A DNA stretch of 12,108 nucleotides from Leptolyngbyaceae cyanobacterium (GCA_965263355.1 CBDHHL010000017.1:1-12108); one strand, 5' to 3'. Shown: positions 2,574 to 11,130, counted from the stretch's first letter. The notes: generated by a model not told the origin, from the sequence alone. Translations and numbers: made by a program.

Positions 2574-3448
2574 CACAGTGGCTTCACAGAGGGTACCATG
2601 AAACCTAAGAAATTTTTTTCAAATCGTTTTTTATATTATTTTTGGAAAATTAACATAAATTAAGTCAATTTAGGCCATTTAAAGAGAAAAAAGTACAATG
2701 GAACTCTTATTTATACCCTGTCAAACTTGACTATGAGAGAGAAAAATGAGAAAATCGAAAAATTTAAAAAAGCTATTTTCTGAGCTTGGGAGTGAAAATT
2801 TGGGTGTATAGCATAAAAGAAAAATGTTTCAAAAAGAAAATTACATAAAAAAAATGCTATAATAATGGCCTCTTATTAAATAATTTTTACTGAAAAACTG
2901 GAAAGTTTGATTTTCAATTTCTAGAAATTTAGTCTTTTTACCGCTTTATGGCGAGAGGGACAACTTGCCGCAATGGCGACCTATATGTCAAAAAACTATG
3001 ATATCTCGTGTATTTTGCCATATGGGTCACATTTGCGGCAAGTTGTCCCCGGCTTGACATTATAATTTTGAAAAAAGGCTCTATTTGGGGCATTTTTTCA
3101 CAAGTAAAATAGCATAACTTTTACTATAAAAAATCATCAAATTCAATTAGTTTTACATATTTTTAGATAGCCATTGGTCTAATCATTAAGTTAAAATCAA
3201 CATGTAATAACAACATTTTCATATAAATATGGCAATTTCATGTCTTAAAGATGACCTATTATTTTTGCATTTTTTTCTAATCAGTCTAATTTCACTCTAG
3301 TACTGAAACAAATTTGCATTTATCTCAAAATTTTATGTAATATATGGGTGCTCAAACTTTCAGGGATTACTTATGCGGGCTATATGAGCAGTTTGAAACA
3401 AAAAACTGATTTTGAAAAAAAATATTTGTTTCATGGGAAACCACTGTG
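2574..3448. mobile_element. Non-autonomous DNA transposon (875 bp), probably Transib/RAG-like superfamily
   Basis: AT-rich insert with termini CACAGTGG (2574) and CCACTGTG (3441-3448). Subterminal inverted motifs CCATGAAAC and T7-8CAAA(A)TC occur at both ends. Flanked by a 5-bp direct repeat CTCTC (2569-2573, 3449-3453) that is single in uninterrupted satellite units. No transposase ORF. CAC termini plus a 5-bp TSD are the known Transib signature. Confidence 0.85.
2957..3049. repeat. Imperfect ~93-bp inverted repeat (hairpin) near the centre of the transposon
   Basis: GGGACAACTTGCCGCAATGGCGACCTATATGTCAAAAAAC pairs with GTATTTTGCCATATGGGTCACATTTGCGGCAAGTTGTCCC. The outer 17 bp are perfect and the centre is at about GATATC (3000-3005). 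Confidence 0.9.
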
Positions 3449-5008: not shown

Positions 5009-5129
5009 TATATGCGCTTCCCAATATGTTCATATGTAGTTGTACGATTGAGAGAAATAGAGAGAGCTCAGGCTCAGTCTTGAAACGGATCTCATGCTGT
5101 TCACACCTTGTATTCTTACGCTTCTTACA
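5009..5129 (+). repeat. 5' LTR (lacks the first 8 nt TGTAGAGT, ends ...CTTACA)
   Basis: 5009-5126 matches 11013-11130 at 116/118 positions. Ends in CA immediately before TGG. Confidence 0.95.
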
Positions 5130-5141
5130 TGGCGCACGTCG
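5130..5141 (+). promoter_or_regulatory. Putative primer-binding site TGGCGCACGTCG (priming tRNA not identified)
   Basis: TGG (complement of tRNA CCA) directly follows the LTR-terminal CA. It resembles but does not match the tRNA-Ser-type TGGCGCAGTCG. Confidence 0.7.
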
Positions 5142-5268
5142 TTATAAGAATCTAAGATCGCTCCAACTTTGATAAGTGAAGTGAAATATAAAGTGAGAAG
5201 TGAGAAGAAGAGATAGCACCATAGCCCACTAGTCCAAGAACAGTGAGGGGCCATGGGCCCCGCCAGGG

Positions 5269-8200
5269 ATGTCAACCCCATGGCAGTCACTGCGGGACTC
5301 ACTCTTGGGCACCACACAAGCTGGTGAAAGAGAGGAGGGCGATTCTGAGCTCCTGGCCACGGACTCAGAGGAAGAAGACGTCGTAGTTGTCACTCAGGAC
5401 GAGGAGGAGGCATACGACATCGAGATGGCGGAAACCATAGACGGAATCCGCGCTGGAGGCGACGAGAGGGGAGCTCTGTTTGAGACCCTGAGAGCCAAAA
5501 TGAGGGCCAATAAAACCTGGGTGGGCCGCTGGATTGACCGCGACCTAAAGAGCTGCCTCTCAATGTTGGACAGGCAGGGGCCGTCAGCGGCCAAGCAGGT
5601 TGGCAAAGCCCATCAAGTTCTGGAAAAATTAGAGGACAAGATGGAGACAATCGAGGACCAGCTGGATGAAATGGCACAAATGGTCCCGCAGGTCAGGGAT
5701 GACGCCGACAGAATTAAGAATGAGGTTCACCTGCAAATTACCAGGGCCAGGAATGACGCCCTCAATAAGATTGCCACCTACGAGGCAGGGCAAATGGCAC
5801 AAGCGGCCAGGCCGGCAGCCCCAGCAGCAGGGGACGGCGCGGCAAGACGACAAAAGGTGGACGACTCCTTGAGACCGGCGCAGCTCACCCCTGAGTTCAC
5901 TCCAGCAGAGTTTGATAGCTGGAAAAGGGACTTTACCACGTACTTTAACGCCAACAGGTTGGGAGACGTGGGAGTTCAGATTGAGGAGCAGAGACTCCGC
6001 CTTGACCAGTGCCTCAACCCCCATTTCAAAAGATGGCTGGGACGGGAAAGAGACACAACCACAGCCATTTTGGGAGCTGGAGGCTGTCTCGCTGCTTTAG
6101 AGGATGAGTTCAAGAGACTTTACCCTATGTTCGCCAGGCGTAAACAGTTCTGGTCAATGACGCCCGATAAGGGGGAGGACTTTAAGTCCTTCCGGATGAG
6201 GCTGCGGGAAGTGGGGGACATGTGCGACTTGTCAAACCTCACAGAGGAGCAGTGTTATATTATTAAATATCAAACCACTGTCAACGATGAGGGCCTCAAG
6301 CAGCAACTCATCGCCAATGTCAACAGAAATTTGAGAACCCTGGACGCCACTATAGATGCTTACTTCGCAGCGAAGGCAGGGGAGAGACAAGCCAGCGAAG
6401 GAGCTAGGGTTTGGAAAGCCCAAGAGGGGCAACGAGGCCGAGGAGGCAGAGAACACAGGCAGAGAAGCAAGTCCCCAGGGGGCAAACCAAGGGGAGCATG
6501 CTTCGGGTGTGGTGTGGAGAACCACATCAGGAGAGAGTGTAATTTCAAGAATAACAAATGCTCCTCCTGCGGGAATGTGGGACACCTGCCCAGACACTCA
6601 ACGTGTCCCAACAACAAGGGGTACAGGAAACCCAACAGGAGCCAGACTCCAGGTCCAAGAGCCGCCAAGGTTGAAGAGGGAGCCGAATCCACCGGCATGT
6701 ACCAAGCCTGGCCACCGATGATGCCGCCCACTCCTCAAGGAGGTGAGAGCGCCAATATGATAAGGATGGCGTCCCAGGAGCCCAAGTCCTATGCACAGGC
6801 ATTAGAGGGCGGTAAGAACAGAATATATATTTACCGCAAACCGGTCGATTTGCCTATCATCGACAGCGAAATAATCACAGATCACGAGGCGTTAATTCAC
6901 CCCACTTTTCAAGATACGGGGGCGTCGGCGAACGTTATATCGCACAATTTATTCCTGAAATGGAATCTCAAGTTGCTAGAGGGCTACACAAAGCCCATGT
7001 ACAGCGTGACGGGAGAAAAGATGTCCGTAGAGGGCAGAACGTCACTCAGTATTAGGTCTCGAGAGGGGTTCGAGTTCAAAAGCATAGAATTGGTAGTCAC
7101 CAAAGACACGGCCGACGAAGTAATTATAGGGCTGAAGGACATTAGGAGAACGGGTTTGCTACCCCCCAATTGGCCTCACCAGATTGGATATTGGTCCAAT
7201 GACAGGTGCAATAAGGTCGACAGCGTACAGGCAGAATGCGACGAAGTTAAGAACCGTCTCTGCGACGAATTCAGCGACGTCATCAGTGACGAGATTTCAA
7301 TGGAGAAGATTGTAGGGGAACCGCTTAATATTAAGTTCAAGAAAGGGGTAGCGGTTAGGCCTTATAAACATACTACGGCCAGGCGAATTCCCATTCATCA
7401 GGAGAAAGCAGCTCATGAGTATTTGGGCGACCTGATTCAGAAGGGAATTATCGAGAAAATCGACGATGACGAACCGTGTGATTTCGTAGCACCGGCATTT
7501 TTTGTCCCAAAGGCTAATGGCAAAGTTAGGCTTGTAACGGATTACAAGTACATTAATCAGTTTCTGGACCGCCCAGTCCAGCCGTTTATGTCATCCAGGC
7601 AGATCGTGGATGCTATCAGACCGGAATCGAAGTATTTCGGCGCATTAGACATGGTTCAAGGCTATTATCAAATAGCATTAGATCACGAGAGCTCCAAGCT
7701 CACAACATTCATTTTGCCGGACGGGAAGTACAGATACAAAAGATTGCCCATGGGAATGAATATCGCAGGGGACGTCTGGAACATCAGAACAGATGGCGTG
7801 ATATGCGGGGTCAAGGACGCCCTTAAAATGATCGACGACGTATTAACTCAGGGCATTAACTTAACAGACACGGAAGAGAAACTCCGAAAGGTATTGCTAA
7901 AATGCAGAGAACTGGGCATTACAGTGTCCAGAAGCAAATTTCGAATAGGCCAGGAAGTCGAATTTGTCGGGTATAAAATAGGGGCGGACGGTGTAAGGCC
8001 AAGTAGCAAGAATCTGGACTCCGTTCGCAACTTCCCGGTCCCAAAATGCGTGAAGGACATCCGAGCATTTATGGGGCTAGCAAATCAAATCTCGCATTTT
8101 TCTCCCGACCTTATGCAGAATACCGTGCATTTGAGAGCTCTCCTGAAGAGAGAGAACGCCTTTGTATGGGGAGAAGCACAGGAAAACGATTTTAAACGGG

Positions 8201-10824
8201 CAAAAGAGATTCTTTTGTCCGACGCAGTAGTCAAGCCCTACATGATGGGGTTACGCACAGTATTATATACAGATGCATCCAAATTGCACGGACTGGGGTT
8301 TGCTCTGGTGCAATATGAAAACGAAAGCGAGAAACCCCGGCTTGTCACATGTGGCAGCTGCGCACTTACACCTACACAATCACGTTATGCCGTCTGTGAG
8401 CTAGAAGCGCTCGGTATACAATACGCATTAGAAAAATGTAATCACTATCTCAGGGGCGCACCAAAATTCACGATAGTCACAGATCATCGCCCTTTAGTAG
8501 GTATATGGACAATGGAGCTAGCCGCAATTTCGAACCCGAGACTGCTGCGTCTGCGCTTAAAAACGGTCCCGTACGACTTCGAGCTGATATGGCAACCGGG
8601 GAAGAAGCAGTTGGTCGCCGATGCGTTGAGCCGTTATCCCACGTTCGCCCCGGAGGCGGGTTGCAAAGAATTGGATGAAGCTCACATATATATTTGCAGG
8701 GCAATCACCACCCAGACACCGTGCCGAACTCTTTTAGAGGCCGCCCAGGACAATGAATATATGAAAATTGTGGAATGCGTGGAGAAGGAAGAATGGTCAG
8801 AAATTCAGGAAGGTCACCCAGCCTGGGAGTTGAAGAAGTGGGGACCGTCAATGTCGATTCTAAAAGGTGAGACAGGGGGTGCCCTTGTTTTGGTGGGGGG
8901 AGAGAGAATTCTTGTCCCGCAATCTGCAAGAAAAGCAATTTTGGACATTTTGCATGAAGGCCACCCGGGGGTCACTAAAATGGTGAAAAAAGCAAACTGT
9001 TATTATTTCTGGCCTGGAATGAATAACGAATGCGAGCTCAAGGTCAAGGGCTGTATGGAATGTGTGAAGTTAGCACCATCTCAGCAGAAGCACAAGTTAA
9101 CTGCTGAGAAAGCAATGGCCCCGATGTCCCACATGGGAATTGACCTCTTTTCATGGCAAGGGAAAAATTATTTAGTTGCAGTATGCCGATTTTCGGGTTG
9201 GCCCTTTGTTAAATTAATGCGATCAACAACCACGGATAGCGTATGTAAAACGCTAACAAGCTGGTTCAATAATTTTGGGTGGCCCATTGCAATTCGCACA
9301 GATGGGGGGCCACAATTTCGCGCAATTTTTTCAGAATTCTGCGCATCTCGCAACATTGCTCATGAAACAGCTTCCGCGTACAACGCAGAAGCTAACGGCT
9401 TAGCTGAGGCAGCTGTTAAACAGACCAAGTATTTACTGCAGAAAATAGGAAGCATGGGAGAGAGGTATGACAGAGAGCTTTGCGCGTGGCGCAACACACC
9501 TCGCGCCGACGGGTTTAGCCCTGCCATGCTGATGTTCAATAGGAACATGAAAGAGGAGCGCCTGCCCGTAGCCGCGCCTGCGTTGCGTCTCCAGAGTCAG
9601 GGACACCAGGAATTGGGTGCGCAAGCAAGGCAGGAAGTAAGGGAGCAACAAGTGGGGCACAAGAATCAGGTCAGATTAGAAAGGAAACAGTTAAAAGTAG
9701 GTCAGTTAGTTTTGGTTCAGAACACTGACAACAACCTTTGGGATCAATTCGGCAACATCATTGAAGTTCGACCTGATAACTTGTCCTACTTGGTAAGGTT
9801 GCACAACACTGATCGTATTGTACTACGTGGTAGAGATTTGCTAAAAGATGTCCACCCTGAACTGGAACAGCAAATCAAAACAATAACATTGCAATCTATT
9901 CTTTTACCACCTCGCTTTTCCAGAGCAGTTAAAAAGACAGTAAGATGGGGTTCTTTGATACCGACAACCATCAGGAGGCTCACCAGGAACACGATAATGC
10001 ATACGACACCAACTCCAACAACGGGCTGGTCAACCTGGAAGGGGGCTCAGCAACATTGGCCATCCTGTTGGTCGCAGCCCTCGCCGGGATACCAATTGGG
10101 GTCTGTTTGTGGCGCTGGGTTAAGAAAGACCGAATCCGTCTCAGGGCCCAGTACCCCAACGCCTACGCAGCCTACAAGGCCGAGCGGAAGGAGGACGTCC
10201 GCGAGCTGGCTTGGGGAGGCTCTTGGGGATCAGGGAGCTCCAAGAAACACGACACTTCCAGCATCGAGTGGGGCTGCTCAGGGGCATTGGAGTACCAGCC
10301 CTCTGCCCCAGCACACCAGTATCAGCCCTCTGCCCCAGCACACCCCAGGCACTGGGAGGGACCCAACAAAGAGCGAGACCCCGTCAGGAAGACCAAGGAG
10401 TCTCGTGCCAACAGAGAGGTCAGAGTCAACCGGGAGGCCAGCCCTGGTCCGGAGGTCCACAGGAAGAGGGGGCAGCCTAAGGCTCCTGCACCAGGCCCAA
10501 GCAGGGACCTGTTCCAGCCGCGCCTCGTCACGGCCACAGCTCCAGGAGTGTCTGCCGCCGCCGTCATCGATCTTCAGGGGGCGGTCGCTGAACTCAAGTC
10601 CCTCATGGAGGGGCTCAAGAGCAAGCCGGTCAACACCGCTCGTAGGGAGATACGCGTCGATGCCTCCCCGCTTCGCATCGACGACATCAACATTGAAGAG
10701 TTCGAAGAATGAGCAAGAAGAAAAAGAAGGTGACTGGTTTCAGATCATAAAATTGAAAAGCGGCTACAAGGCTGTACATATTGGACCGCTAAAAACCTCT
10801 GAGTGTGCTAATGAAAGTGAGTAA
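5269..10824 (+). CDS. gag-pol: Gag-Pol polyprotein, 1851 aa, single uninterrupted frame (Gag, aspartic protease, reverse transcriptase, RNase H, integrase, low-complexity tail)
   Basis: Zinc knuckles CFGCGVENHIRREC and CSSCGNVGHLPRHSTC (6499-6606). Protease QDTGAS (D at 6913). RT LDMVQGYYQI, YKRLPMG and MIDD (7828-7839). RNase H TDAS, ELEALGI, TDHRPL, ADALSR. Integrase HEGH..CMEC (8953-9063) and catalytic D (9142), D (9301), E (9406). The start may instead be the ATG at 5425. Confidence 0.96.
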   Translation: MSTPWQSLRDSLLGTTQAGEREEGDSELLATDSEEEDVVVVTQDEEEAYDIEMAETIDGIRAGGDERGALFETLRAKMRANKTWVGRWIDRDLKSCLSMLDRQGPSAAKQVGKAHQVLEKLEDKMETIEDQLDEMAQMVPQVRDDADRIKNEVHLQITRARNDALNKIATYEAGQMAQAARPAAPAAGDGAARRQKVDDSLRPAQLTPEFTPAEFDSWKRDFTTYFNANRLGDVGVQIEEQRLRLDQCLNPHFKRWLGRERDTTTAILGAGGCLAALEDEFKRLYPMFARRKQFWSMTPDKGEDFKSFRMRLREVGDMCDLSNLTEEQCYIIKYQTTVNDEGLKQQLIANVNRNLRTLDATIDAYFAAKAGERQASEGARVWKAQEGQRGRGGREHRQRSKSPGGKPRGACFGCGVENHIRRECNFKNNKCSSCGNVGHLPRHSTCPNNKGYRKPNRSQTPGPRAAKVEEGAESTGMYQAWPPMMPPTPQGGESANMIRMASQEPKSYAQALEGGKNRIYIYRKPVDLPIIDSEIITDHEALIHPTFQDTGASANVISHNLFLKWNLKLLEGYTKPMYSVTGEKMSVEGRTSLSIRSREGFEFKSIELVVTKDTADEVIIGLKDIRRTGLLPPNWPHQIGYWSNDRCNKVDSVQAECDEVKNRLCDEFSDVISDEISMEKIVGEPLNIKFKKGVAVRPYKHTTARRIPIHQEKAAHEYLGDLIQKGIIEKIDDDEPCDFVAPAFFVPKANGKVRLVTDYKYINQFLDRPVQPFMSSRQIVDAIRPESKYFGALDMVQGYYQIALDHESSKLTTFILPDGKYRYKRLPMGMNIAGDVWNIRTDGVICGVKDALKMIDDVLTQGINLTDTEEKLRKVLLKCRELGITVSRSKFRIGQEVEFVGYKIGADGVRPSSKNLDSVRNFPVPKCVKDIRAFMGLANQISHFSPDLMQNTVHLRALLKRENAFVWGEAQENDFKRAKEILLSDAVVKPYMMGLRTVLYTDASKLHGLGFALVQYENESEKPRLVTCGSCALTPTQSRYAVCELEALGIQYALEKCNHYLRGAPKFTIVTDHRPLVGIWTMELAAISNPRLLRLRLKTVPYDFELIWQPGKKQLVADALSRYPTFAPEAGCKELDEAHIYICRAITTQTPCRTLLEAAQDNEYMKIVECVEKEEWSEIQEGHPAWELKKWGPSMSILKGETGGALVLVGGERILVPQSARKAILDILHEGHPGVTKMVKKANCYYFWPGMNNECELKVKGCMECVKLAPSQQKHKLTAEKAMAPMSHMGIDLFSWQGKNYLVAVCRFSGWPFVKLMRSTTTDSVCKTLTSWFNNFGWPIAIRTDGGPQFRAIFSEFCASRNIAHETASAYNAEANGLAEAAVKQTKYLLQKIGSMGERYDRELCAWRNTPRADGFSPAMLMFNRNMKEERLPVAAPALRLQSQGHQELGAQARQEVREQQVGHKNQVRLERKQLKVGQLVLVQNTDNNLWDQFGNIIEVRPDNLSYLVRLHNTDRIVLRGRDLLKDVHPELEQQIKTITLQSILLPPRFSRAVKKTVRWGSLIPTTIRRLTRNTIMHTTPTPTTGWSTWKGAQQHWPSCWSQPSPGYQLGSVCGAGLRKTESVSGPSTPTPTQPTRPSGRRTSASWLGEALGDQGAPRNTTLPASSGAAQGHWSTSPLPQHTSISPLPQHTPGTGRDPTKSETPSGRPRSLVPTERSESTGRPALVRRSTGRGGSLRLLHQAQAGTCSSRASSRPQLQECLPPPSSIFRGRSLNSSPSWRGSRASRSTPLVGRYASMPPRFASTTSTLKSSKNEQEEKEGDWFQIIKLKSGYKAVHIGPLKTSECANESE
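9898..9923 (+). promoter_or_regulatory. Candidate 3' splice acceptor for a subgenomic ORF2 mRNA
   Basis: ATTCTTTTACCACCTCGCTTTTCCAG is a pyrimidine tract ending in CAG on an otherwise purine-rich strand, 21 nt before the ORF2 ATG. Possible branch point ATAAC at ~9883. Confidence 0.55.
9945..10712 (+). CDS. ORF2: 255-aa putative small single-pass membrane protein overlapping the pol tail in another frame
   Basis: ATG in good context (AAGATGG). Codons are strongly C/G-ending in this frame, as in gag. Hydrophobic segment ATLAILLVAALAGIPIGVCLW (10050-10112) followed by basic RWVKKDRIRLR, two YQPSAPAH repeats and an amphipathic C-terminal helix. Confidence 0.78.
   Translation: MGFFDTDNHQEAHQEHDNAYDTNSNNGLVNLEGGSATLAILLVAALAGIPIGVCLWRWVKKDRIRLRAQYPNAYAAYKAERKEDVRELAWGGSWGSGSSKKHDTSSIEWGCSGALEYQPSAPAHQYQPSAPAHPRHWEGPNKERDPVRKTKESRANREVRVNREASPGPEVHRKRGQPKAPAPGPSRDLFQPRLVTATAPGVSAAAVIDLQGAVAELKSLMEGLKSKPVNTARREIRVDASPLRIDDINIEEFEE
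10291..10344 (+). repeat. 27-bp tandem duplication (2 copies) encoding the two PSAP motifs
   Basis: AGTACCAGCCCTCTGCCCCAGCACACC / AGTATCAGCCCTCTGCCCCAGCACACC. The one internal mismatch is synonymous in the ORF2 frame (TAC/TAT). Confidence 0.95.
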
Positions 10825-10996: not shown

Positions 10997-11004
10997 GGGG
11001 GAGG
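10997..11004 (+). promoter_or_regulatory. Polypurine tract GGGGGAGG
   Basis: Purine run immediately before the TG that starts the 3' LTR. Confidence 0.85.
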
Positions 11005-11130
11005 TGTAGAGTTATATGCGCTTCCCAATATGTTCATATGTAGTTGTACGATTGAGAGAAATAGAGAGAGCTCAGGCTCAGTTGTGAAACGGATCTCATG
11101 CTGTTCACACCTTGTATTCTTACGCTTCTT
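11005..11130 (+). repeat. 3' LTR (starts TGTAGAG, lacks the last 3 nt ACA)
   Basis: Direct repeat of the 5' LTR. The reconstructed full LTR is 129 bp, TGTA...TACA. Confidence 0.95.

Follow-up and report, generated by a model that had tools for sequence, protein, structure and literature searches.

A second-frame gene with a FAST/sORF2-like layout inside the polymerase tail of a Ty3/Gypsy retrotransposon

The window, by which we mean the whole 12,108-nt stretch of DNA that was analysed, carries an intact, young Ty3/Gypsy LTR retrotransposon without env. The hallmarks of Ty3/Gypsy elements (Metaviridae) are all present, namely LTRs, PBS, PPT and the order gag(CCHC)-PR-RT-RNase H-IN. The landmarks of the element, of which the primer-binding and polypurine sites were read from the sequence, are as follows:

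5009..5126, plus strand: 5′ LTR, 118 nt, a direct repeat with 98% identity to 11013-11130
5130..5141, plus strand: primer-binding-site-like TGGCGCACGTCG, 3 nt past the 5′ LTR
5253..5327, plus strand: upstream ORF of 24 codons (MGPARD...), overlapping the gag start and without a TM segment
5269..10824, plus strand: gag-pol single ORF, 1851 aa, with CCHC knuckles, protease, RT, RNase H, integrase and a ~290-aa tail
10997..11004, plus strand: polypurine tract GGGGGAGG, 8 nt ahead of the 3′ LTR
11013..11130, plus strand: 3′ LTR, direct-repeat partner of 5009..5126

Pfam matches of gag-pol were found for RT_RNaseH (2.5e-20), RVT_1 (1.6e-15) and Integrase_H2C2 (2.1e-12); those for protease and CCHC were under the curated cut-offs. 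Short LTRs and a single gag-pol ORF are compatible with the Mag lineage of Ty3/Gypsy, of which we take them to be traits.

A second open frame, ORF2, lies entirely within the open gag-pol frame and occupies the env position, 3′ of integrase and 5′ of the polypurine tract and 3′ LTR. The preliminary description had placed a 255-codon ORF here, wholly overlapped by pol, and the coordinates it gave are correct. The features of ORF2 and its immediate surroundings are:

9900..9923, plus strand: candidate 3′ splice site, a pyrimidine tract leading to CAG, 21 nt 5′ of the ORF2 ATG, found by eye
9945..10712, plus strand: ORF2, 255 codons, frame −1 to that of pol, with ATG at 9945 and TGA at 10710-10712
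9945..10052, plus strand: residues 1-36, predicted ectodomain, beginning with MG and rich in acidic residues and His (net charge −7, 3 His)
10053..10109, plus strand: residues 37-55, predicted transmembrane (TM) helix, mean Kyte-Doolittle 2.50, within AlphaFold2 helix 34-69
10110..10175, plus strand: residues 56-77, juxtamembrane basic stretch WRWVKKDRIRLR and an invariant cluster of three Tyr, from alignment A3 and charge count
10296..10349, plus strand: tandem duplication of a 27-nt unit, giving two PSAP motifs; P0003 and one run-X3 contig have the single-copy form
10554..10619, plus strand: residues 204-225, predicted cytoplasmic helix (AlphaFold2, mean pLDDT 46), with L210, V214, E216, L217 and L220 invariant
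10677..10709, plus strand: C-terminus, acidic and containing an aromatic residue, IDDINIEEFEE; relatives terminate in ...SDWD

Much of the protein layout proposed in the preliminary description was confirmed: the N-terminus reads MGFFDT, there is a single hydrophobic helix (best 19-mer 2.50 vs 1.19 for the runner-up, mean Kyte-Doolittle), Cys54 stands at its cytoplasmic end, and the 20 residues past it carry a net charge of +5. Under the positive-inside rule, the flank charges of −7 and +5 favour an N-out/C-in topology. Residues 1-36 hold 22 positions that are invariant among five family members, and past the TM segment alignment A3 shows no variation at W56-D62, R63-P71, Y74 and Y77. The part after the TM segment is about 200 aa long. 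A Pro-rich disordered region had been described, and residues 90-205 (116 residues) indeed contain 15 Pro, 11 Gly and 13 Ser, with pLDDT <50 at residues 87-200 in the AlphaFold2 model. This low-confidence model has helices at 34-69, 71-89 and 204-225. The last of these matches the helix described before; its amphipathic character, however, proved weak, with a hydrophobic moment of 0.19-0.22 (0.22 at most; rank 67/236 among 20-mers). A YPN (YxN) motif and the Pro-rich tail occur in the window ORF2, and neither is conserved in distant relatives. A Pfam search with ORF2 gave no family at E < 0.08 and, up to E 10, chance-level TM matches at most; there were no Atlas look-alikes scoring at least 0.9. 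The Phe after Gly2 had been flagged as disfavoured for myristoylation, and a PROSITE-type myristoylation pattern is indeed failed by 6/6 ORF2 family members because of this Phe.

The ORF2 family is tiny, with six relatives among 5.8 billion protein clusters and five matches among 1.84 billion representatives. Those of full length (P0003, P0004 and P0006) have 246-292 aa, and four of the eight family proteins (P0005, P0007, P0008 and P0040) are frameshifted or truncated. Conservation in relatives and frame-specific constraint had been named in the preliminary description as checks on ORF2, and both came out in favour of the ORF2 frame. P0004-P0006 are 43-49% identical to ORF2 overall (alignment A2) and 45-58% in local BLASTP alignments, and at this distance the N-terminus, membrane helix and basic flank are kept. 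The MG start, the ectodomain, the TM segment and a WRWVK.DRIRLRAQYP segment are near-invariant, and all six N-terminally complete members begin with Met-Gly. Identity to relatives, for ORF2 and pol proteins drawn from different contigs, was 60-65% over ORF2 residues 1-120, 42-46% when that stretch was read in the pol frame and 72-74% for the integrase core.

Next to these protein comparisons stand the substitutions in close copies. P0009, a 93% copy, differs from the window at 14 pol-frame amino acids within overlap codons 1-118; all 14 differences are synonymous in ORF2, each being a single change at the third position of an ORF2 codon. With a null of 212/753 (28% each), this gives P about 2e-8. 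The copy-variant counts rest on 40 listed of 323 variant places; among those listed, 8/8 variants in the overlap are pol-nonsynonymous and 7/8 ORF2-synonymous, and in pol-only DNA 25/26 are pol-synonymous. Indels listed in the overlap all keep the frame (27, +3, 9, 6, and 1 plus 2, this last pair at equal depth in run X3).

If ORF2 were a chance open frame, pol would be the true coding frame throughout and the protein features by-products. Alternative frames are often open in GC-rich DNA, and at related GC-rich loci those that cover the small ORF are open about as often as chance predicts (e.g. L005, P 0.45). A chance frame is nevertheless contradicted by the frame-specific substitution patterns (14/14 in P0009 and, among listed variants, 7/8 synonymous for ORF2 vs 0/8 for pol). 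It also fits poorly with the higher protein conservation in the ORF2 frame and with GC at ORF2 codon positions of 0.63/0.49/0.72, which is coding-like, and we regard it as extremely improbable. Judged by these comparisons, ORF2 is a real gene under purifying selection, with a single-pass membrane protein as its predicted product.

The dual open frame exceeds chance. When ORF2 codons were shuffled synonymously, the pol frame was stop-free in 0.16% of 5000 shuffles (P 0.0016); the converse shuffle of pol codons left 0.22% open, and the third frame has 7 stops. The ~290-codon extension of pol is free to vary in amino-acid sequence, yet its frame stays open, and at its end stands a short conserved peptide:

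10729..10785, plus strand: pol-frame terminal peptide GDWFQIIKLKSGYKAVHIG, ~19 residues, marked by pol-frame constraint

This peptide has 17/20 residues the same in P0010 and also ends P0005 and P0008. Among the variants listed, 3/3 within it are pol-synonymous, and so is a fourth in a loose end.

ORF2 would be translated from its own ATG, which has A at −3 and G at +4. The template would most likely be an env-style spliced subgenomic RNA, because a pyrimidine tract and CAG sit 21 nt upstream of this ATG; candidate splice donors of the GTGAG type can be read in the leader of the element at about 5195-5247. The runs listed as carrying the element included no RNA run. Alternatively, −1 ribosomal frameshifting at about 9930-9936 (T AAA AAG) might yield a Gag-Pol-ORF2 fusion, and part of the polyprotein would then be tethered to membranes. 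ORF2 is in the −1 frame, which is shut just upstream by TAA 9930-9932 and opens right past it in an A-rich stretch that this stop codon overlaps, and a TM segment with a basic flank is found in the pol frame of a distant Gypsy relative (P0027) and of locus L007. Against this, the heptamer departs from the canonical X XXY YYZ pattern, the following 100 nt showed no stronger folding than shuffled versions (z 0.54; 137/200 as good), and Rfam yielded no frameshift element. The Met-Gly start of the complete family members (6/6) also counts against it, as does the recurrence of MG starts in the related clade, mostly in ORFs that come after the pol stop. We consider frameshifting very improbable.

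The position of ORF2, with its one TM segment and cytoplasmic tail, could suggest a classical envelope gene that has shrunk until the TM subunit and cytoplasmic tail remained. Retroviral and errantiviral Env proteins, however, have a signal peptide, a large glycosylated ectodomain, an SU/TM cleavage site and heptad repeats, whereas ORF2 has just 36 residues before the TM segment, with neither a signal peptide nor a Cys-rich or glycosylated ectodomain, and in Pfam it matched no env, signal-peptide or glycoprotein family. This agrees with the earlier judgement that ORF2 is not a classical Env. The best-conserved part of ORF2 is moreover its MG-starting N-terminus, which is unexpected for a truncation product. 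We regard an env remnant as very improbable.

ORF2 may be compared with the FAST-like sORF2 proteins of insect LTR retrotransposons. In the preprint that describes them (Voichek et al., bioRxiv 10.1101/2025.03.14.642691), these are reported from the Drosophila MDG1 group (412, mdg1, Stalker and others), where sORF2 lies upstream of gag, and from Lepidoptera, where it lies downstream of pol in 7/22 consensus sequences. They are 63-107 aa long, and function was demonstrated for 412 sORF2. The preliminary description had placed FAST-like small ORFs downstream of pol in MDG1-group elements, a position that holds for these Lepidoptera but not for Drosophila. Table S1 of the preprint includes the N-termini MGFVDTK and MGFFSSD, which softens the objection to Phe after Gly2, and shows His/Glu-rich motifs before the TM segment.

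The screen used in that preprint selected proteins of 60-210 aa with one TM domain, N-out/C-in, MGxxxS/T, an ectodomain of 10-50 aa and a cytoplasmic part of <150 aa. ORF2 has one TM domain by Kyte-Doolittle, an ectodomain of 36-37 aa and, in MGFFDT, the MGxxxS/T pattern, which is present in 5/6 N-terminally complete family members; it exceeds the limits for total length (255 aa) and for the cytoplasmic part (~200 aa). A polybasic stretch beside the membrane and Tyr close to the TM segment, both described for sORF2, are present as well (+5 in ORF2), with the invariant Y70, Y74 and Y77 lying 15-22 residues past the TM segment and not directly at its end. Like the insect genes, ORF2 is a sense-strand gene of a Gypsy element that lacks env and encodes an ectodomain of the ~30-37-aa class, a likeness that consists in layout and in visual comparison with table S1. 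Unlike them, it has a ~200-aa tail and lies wholly within an extended pol frame.

According to the literature, FAST proteins (p10, p13, p14, p15, p22 and NSP1-1) are signal-less, N-out/C-in, single-pass and acylated, with a very short ectodomain and a polybasic motif. Their tails are modular and disordered and recruit actin machinery, p14 through a YVNI that binds Grb2 (PMC7244324), and p22 binds intersectin. ORF2 shares the small ectodomain, single TM segment and polybasic motif, and its YxN motif and Pro-rich tail are further points of likeness. It differs in being encoded by a retrotransposon and 255 aa long, whereas FAST proteins are non-structural proteins of ~80-200 aa from fusogenic non-enveloped dsRNA viruses (reovirus, rotavirus), and Pfam gave no sequence match of ORF2 to the FAST family. 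The FAST-like layout of the preliminary description thus stands for MGxxxS/T, the ~36-aa ectodomain, the one TM segment and the polybasic flank, and does not extend to overall size or the cytoplasmic part. In most hallmarks ORF2 is, as far as its predicted features go, of the FAST/sORF2 layout, but it is longer than the published screen permits.

Small TM genes also occur in metagenomic Gypsy elements akin to that of the window. Across 79 metagenome loci whose pol is related (407,140 nt), a 7-residue ectodomain pattern had 12 matches on the pol strand vs 0 on the reverse, and 9 of the 12 matched ORFs have an MG start. A strict screen for small TM ORFs 3′ of integrase was positive in 8/24 loci (seven metagenome loci and the window's own element), vs 0/24 on the reverse strand and 0/24 upstream. 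In an integrase tree, the window family falls into one clade (support 95/85) with all nine motif loci that were placed, and the motif occurs in 0/8 loci outside it. This family (loci L001, L002, L005, L006, L009, L013, L014, L016, L026 and L041; proteins P0041-P0048) resembles ORF2 in position, orientation, MG start, ~33-45-aa ectodomain, TM segment and basic or Cys-rich flank, and its pol belongs to the same integrase clade as that of the window element. Its proteins are shorter than ORF2 (106-219 aa vs 255 aa), most of its ORFs come after the pol stop rather than being overlapped by pol, and it has a conserved S-S-G-x-H-x-x-E-x-H-x-P-T ahead of the TM segment, of which the window family has a loose counterpart, HSGLFNFEGGSGT. 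By hhalign, ORF2 matched the metagenomic family with probabilities of 62% (E 7.6e-5) and 40% (E 3e-4), with MG, motif, TM segment and basic flank collinear; with an HMM of the family N-terminus (hmmsearch), the window ORF2 scored 1.4 bits, below a reverse-strand ORF and no better than random ORFs. The independent acquisition once suggested for ORF2 is doubtful, because small MG-starting TM genes past integrase are common in the Gypsy clade of the element.

Our main reading, to which we give a probability of roughly one half, is that ORF2 is an accessory gene whose FAST/sORF2-like membrane protein would aid the passage of env-less capsids between cells. The protein would be inserted N-out/C-in. 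A small membrane-active ectodomain, together with a cytoplasmic tail engaging host machinery as in reovirus FAST and insect sORF2 proteins, would bring together or open the membranes of adjacent cells, so that env-less capsids could pass. A soma-to-germline route of transfer cannot be assumed for the window element.

ORF2 could also be a real membrane protein with another job, such as budding or ESCRT recruitment, an assembly anchor, a viroporin-like small type III protein or host modulation (e.g. superinfection exclusion). The evidence that ORF2 is a gene fits such a role equally well. Influenza M2-type viroporins share the short-ectodomain type III layout. The long, disordered tail of ORF2, with its many Pro and Tyr residues, is typical of adaptor-binding tails, there are two PSAP motifs in the window lineage and one in P0003, and the size and tail length lie beyond the sORF2 screen. 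The PSAP motif is missing, however, from the relatives with 43-49% identity (A2) and is therefore no family feature. The ectodomain and juxtamembrane segment are the best conserved parts of ORF2, which suits a membrane-active ectodomain, and the MG start, ~36-aa ectodomain and polybasic flank together are the FAST/sORF2 signature. We give another job a smaller but appreciable probability. ORF2 is a protected second-frame gene within the polymerase tail of a Gypsy element and, in its predicted features, a variant on the FAST/sORF2 layout.

The arrangement of the two frames has a parallel in hepadnaviruses, where the PreS/S envelope gene lies inside the polymerase ORF, the overlap being mid-P and also over RT. 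This is said to have been set out by Lauber et al. in 2017. Both cases involve a reverse-transcribing element in which the gene for a membrane protein lies wholly within pol in a different frame, and in both the overlapped part of pol tolerates amino-acid change (the spacer in hepadnaviruses, the post-integrase tail in the window element). The window overlap differs in lying past integrase and being followed by the short conserved terminal peptide, and the proteins are unrelated. Nackednavirus smORF2 may be placed beside PreS/S in this comparison.

The 255-codon open reading frame at 9945-10712 (ORF2) was present as the preliminary description had given it, and it lies in the −1 frame of pol. 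A TAA at 9930-9932 shuts the ORF2 frame upstream, so the ATG at 9945, which has A at −3 and G at +4, is the first ATG of ORF2. The surrounding element is an intact, young Ty3/Gypsy LTR retrotransposon.

Features of the retrotransposon; the two sites without coordinates were read from the sequence
5009-5126, + strand: 5' LTR, 118 nt, direct repeat with 11013-11130, 98% identical
After the 5' LTR, + strand: primer-binding-like site, starting TGG
5269-10824, + strand: gag-pol ORF, 1851 codons, with CCHC knuckles, aspartic protease, RT, RNase H and integrase zinc domain in that order
8 nt before the 3' LTR, + strand: GGGGGAGG tract
11013-11130, + strand: 3' LTR, 118 nt, direct repeat with 5009-5126, 98% identical

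In a Pfam search of gag-pol, RT, RNase H and integrase scored above the curated cut-offs and the protease and knuckles below them.

ORF2 belongs to a tiny protein family. Six relatives were found among the 5.8 billion protein clusters searched and five matches among 1.84 billion representatives, while an ORF2 profile search of metagenome contigs and viral contigs found nothing. Three of the six (P0004-P0006) are 43-49% identical to the window ORF2 overall (alignment A2) and nearly unchanged in the MG start, the His/Glu/Asp-rich ectodomain, the transmembrane (TM) segment and the segment WRWVK.DRIRLRAQYP. Over ORF2 residues 1-120 the identity to P0004-P0006 is 60-65%. Read in the pol frame, this stretch shares 42-46% identity with pol of the divergent lineage (P0010, P0011), and the integrase core shares 72-74%. 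The comparison of frames is indirect, because the ORF2 proteins and the pol proteins are encoded on different contigs.

The frame-specific constraint on ORF2 for which the preliminary description had called was evident in P0009, the pol protein encoded by a copy with 93% identity. Over the first 118 codons of the overlap, P0009 and the window differ at 14 residues. Exactly one single-base change accounts for each of the 14, always at pol position 2 and hence ORF2 position 3, and none of them alters the ORF2 protein (212 of 753 such changes silent by chance, ~2e-8). Copy variants were taken from contigs with at least 80% likeness to the window in three DNA runs of 'organism A', which represent at most two samples of one study and possibly the window's own source; there are 323 variant places in total and the classification covers the 40 listed. 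Among those 40, 25 of the 26 variants in pol-only DNA (8600-9944) were pol-synonymous; all eight in the overlap changed the pol frame, and seven of these eight were ORF2-synonymous. Overlap indels among the variants listed were of 27, +3, 9 and 6 nt, and one run (X3) also carried 1-nt and 2-nt deletions three bases apart at equal depth. That ORF2 is an open frame by chance was rejected because of its relatives, the conservation by frame, the 14 of 14 silent differences of P0009 and the copy variants. Such comparisons between sequences show ORF2 to be a real, selected gene for a putative FAST/sORF2-like single-pass membrane protein, overprinted on an extension of pol.

Inside the overlap, the amino-acid sequence of pol is unconstrained, yet its frame is stop-free. 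When the ORF2 codons were shuffled synonymously, the pol frame stayed stop-free in 0.16% of 5000 trials, and in 0 of 5000 when the element's gag-pol codon usage was applied; the third frame has seven stops across the overlap. The pol frame continues past the ORF2 stop into a conserved segment under pol-frame purifying selection:

10729-10785, + strand: pol-frame terminal peptide GDWFQIIKLKSGYKAVHIG, past the ORF2 stop

This peptide is identical at 17 of 20 residues in P0010 and also ends the ORF2-family proteins P0005 and P0008, which change from the ORF2 frame to the pol frame. Among the 40 variants listed of 323, the three in the peptide were all pol-synonymous, as was a further one in a loose end, and the final three, past 10790, were not. 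Scanning the other 35 pol relatives revealed no peptide like it. The simplest reading is a Pol with a ~290-residue unconstrained linker, dual-coded with ORF2, followed by a short functional peptide. Full pol tails occur in two of the four family pol proteins (P0001, P0010); P0009 shifts to the ORF2 frame and P0011 stops ~100 residues early. This speaks to some degree against a strict need for the pol tail. In hepadnaviruses the envelope gene lies inside P, an arrangement that the dual-coding layout of ORF2 and pol resembles.

Candidate signals for expression of ORF2
Leader, about 5195-5247, + strand: GTGAG-type donor candidates, read from the sequence
9900-9923, + strand: candidate 3' splice site, a pyrimidine tract ending CAG, with no ATG before 9945

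The splice-site candidates suggest a putative env-like spliced mRNA for ORF2, and translation would start at its own ATG on the spliced RNA. An A-rich candidate frameshift site could instead allow ORF2 to be made as a −1 fusion with pol. This is unlikely because the site is non-canonical, the 100 nt downstream fold no better than shuffles (z 0.54) and form no stable structure, and the Met-Gly start of ORF2 is conserved; an Rfam scan also gave no matches.

The ORF2 product has one strongly hydrophobic 19-mer at residues 37-55 (mean Kyte-Doolittle 2.50; runner-up 1.19). The 36 residues on its N side carry a net charge of −7 and the 20 residues past the helix carry +5, and the protein is predicted to be N-out, with acylation. 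Pro, Gly and Ser are abundant at residues 90-205. The AlphaFold2 model from a five-sequence alignment was poor (mean pLDDT 46), with helices at 34-69, 71-89, 204-225 and 250-254, and 90-203 without structure. The predicted helix that the preliminary description called amphipathic (204-225) is only weakly so: its hydrophobic moment is 0.22, which ranks 67th among 236 windows. When five ORF2-family members were scanned against Pfam with E allowed up to 10, the only matches were to TM segments at chance level, and in a Protein Atlas search for look-alikes the best score was 0.83, under the 0.9 lead level.

Within the tail, a 27-nt tandem duplication (10296-10349) doubles a PSAP motif of the ESCRT/TSG101 late-domain type. 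The single-copy form is found in P0003, another ORF2-family protein, and in one contig of run X3, and PSAP has no counterpart in the 43-49% identical relatives. Reading YPN as a Grb2 site was set aside as speculation, YPN and PSAP not being kept in distant relatives. The same was done for a reading of the acidic aromatic C-terminus, with the helix before it, as a WASP-type connector-acidic (Arp2/3) motif, for which there was no WH2 or other family match. FAST tails serve as modular adaptors for the actin machinery (PMC7244324, p14; p22), and by speculative analogy the long Tyr- and Pro-rich tail of ORF2 might do likewise.

Small FAST-like proteins were recently shown to allow env-less Drosophila retrotransposons to pass from somatic cells to the oocyte. 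Of these, sORF2 of the MDG1 elements is a TM protein of 63-107 aa, located in invasive protrusions, that enables capsid entry into the oocyte; 105 similar ORFs were reported in arthropod Gypsy consensus sequences, together with nackednavirus and megrivirus ORFs (bioRxiv 10.1101/2025.03.14.642691). To date, the catalogued FAST-like proteins come only from insects and a few viruses. The screen by Voichek et al. selects ORFs of 60-210 aa with one TM, N-out topology and the MGxxxS/T motif, in which the ectodomain spans 10-50 aa and fewer than 150 aa are cytoplasmic. Window ORF2 agrees with four of these six features (one TM, a predicted N-out orientation from its flank charges, MGxxxS/T and ectodomain length) and lies outside both length limits. 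Phe after Gly2, the earlier worry, is not disqualifying within the insect set, where members start MGFVDTK or MGFFSSD (table S1, bioRxiv 10.1101/2025.03.14.642691). Five motif strings of the metagenome family described below had no match in the available part of that table. A literature search of limited coverage turned up no description of a FAST-like gene in any retrotransposon outside insects.

Small TM ORFs of related elements were found in a metagenome set of 79 loci (407,140 nt) fetched with a pol profile. The pattern [FLMIV][HRN][FLMIV][FLMIV]E[FLMIV]H matched 12 times on the pol strand compared with 0 on the reverse. Every match lies inside an ORF past the integrase, directly ahead of a hydrophobic run. 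The mean Kyte-Doolittle value of this run is 2.0-3.1 for ten matches and drops to 1.49 and 1.99 for the broken copies L029 and L040. Nine of the 12 ORFs start with MG, and the ten intact ones are 106-219 aa long. A loose screen (any 19-mer of Kyte-Doolittle at least 2.0, open stretch of at least 50 aa past the integrase) gave 16/23 downstream versus 11/23 on the reverse strand, and was replaced by a strict screen and the motif count because it was unspecific. The strict screen (M-to-stop at least 60 aa, TM score at least 2.0, ectodomain 10-80 aa, C flank at least +3) was positive past the integrase in 8/24 loci, seven from metagenomes plus the window's own element as the 24th locus, with 0/24 on the reverse strand and 0/24 upstream. 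The integrase tree places the window family as sister to the pol relatives P0012/P0013, inside a 39-row clade (support 95/85) that has all nine placed motif loci; the motif occurs in 0 of 8 loci outside it.

Most of these ORFs come past a pol stop. Pol overlaps the small ORF in L001, L002 and L005; its openness there has P 0.45 in L005 and P 0.025 in L002, and L001 has a stop inside, which is not convincing as selection. Searching the protein database with a profile of the metagenome family yielded eight further members (P0041-P0048). By hhalign, window ORF2 aligned to this family with probabilities of 62% and 40% and collinear features; a plain HMM search with the family does not single out window ORF2.

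We put the probability that ORF2 has its predicted function, in cell-to-cell passage, at about 0.5. If it has, the protein would be a compact, testable fusogen-like module and a handle on how retrotransposons of non-model hosts move from cell to cell or from one individual to another. A wider reading is tentative and somewhat doubtful: a whole Gypsy clade, seen to date mainly on metagenome contigs and very likely outside insects, would have N-myristoylated FAST-like proteins at the env position; env-independent passage would be old and widespread; and the window lineage would hold a true dual-coding region of ~770 nt, with pol reading through only to reach its C-terminal peptide, so that a hepadnavirus-like overlap of pol and envelope gene would have arisen independently. 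What is new here is a separate protein family with the layout of FAST-like proteins in another Gypsy clade, evidence for the routine presence of such genes past the integrase in related elements of environmental eukaryotes, and a clean natural case of long dual coding, in which ORF2 bears the amino-acid constraint and pol is merely open as a tether to the terminal peptide. Overlapped genes such as ORF2 are invisible to standard annotation, which calls the longer frame only, and annotation of transposable elements may therefore miss a common class of transmission genes.

Other membrane segments were seen among the relatives. In two more distant Gypsy sequences, P0027 (residues ~1530-1700) and L007:6632, a TM segment is in frame with pol past the integrase. 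In P0027 this segment has a Cys-rich end, after which come a basic flank and a helical stretch. Both resemble fused variants of the same arrangement. In the sister loci L012:4988-5743 and L015:3116-3868, which belong to the same integrase clade, a ~250-aa ORF past pol encodes a highly hydrophobic TM (Kyte-Doolittle 3.05-3.13) with a Cys/Trp-rich, not basic, flank and no ectodomain motif; this ORF may represent a third kind of small membrane gene. The C-terminal 200-250 residues of the pol relatives P0012, P0013, P0015, P0016, P0018, P0020 and P0022 are rich in Ser, Thr, Pro, Arg and Trp and look like off-frame readings. Runs in these tails such as SSWCWPWPSPCG would give a hydrophobic run and then basic residues in the −1 frame, so hidden overlapped TM genes may be common in these sister lineages. 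L006:1616-2812 has an MG-starting small TM ORF in frame with ~290 open upstream codons past pol. It may represent a longer form with an ectodomain, or the upstream frame may simply be open.

At the window locus itself, no target-site duplication of the retrotransposon was evident. The 5' LTR adjoins a tandem satellite, from position 1 to ~5008, which does not restart past the 3' LTR; its ~630-bp units each consist of two diverged ~315-bp halves, and it is broken by an AT-rich stretch of ~800 bp (roughly 2575-3370, GC ~0.31). A short upstream ORF (5253-5327, 24 codons, MGPARD...) has no TM segment. Its start context is good, it runs across the gag ATG at 5269 in a different frame, and it might regulate gag translation.
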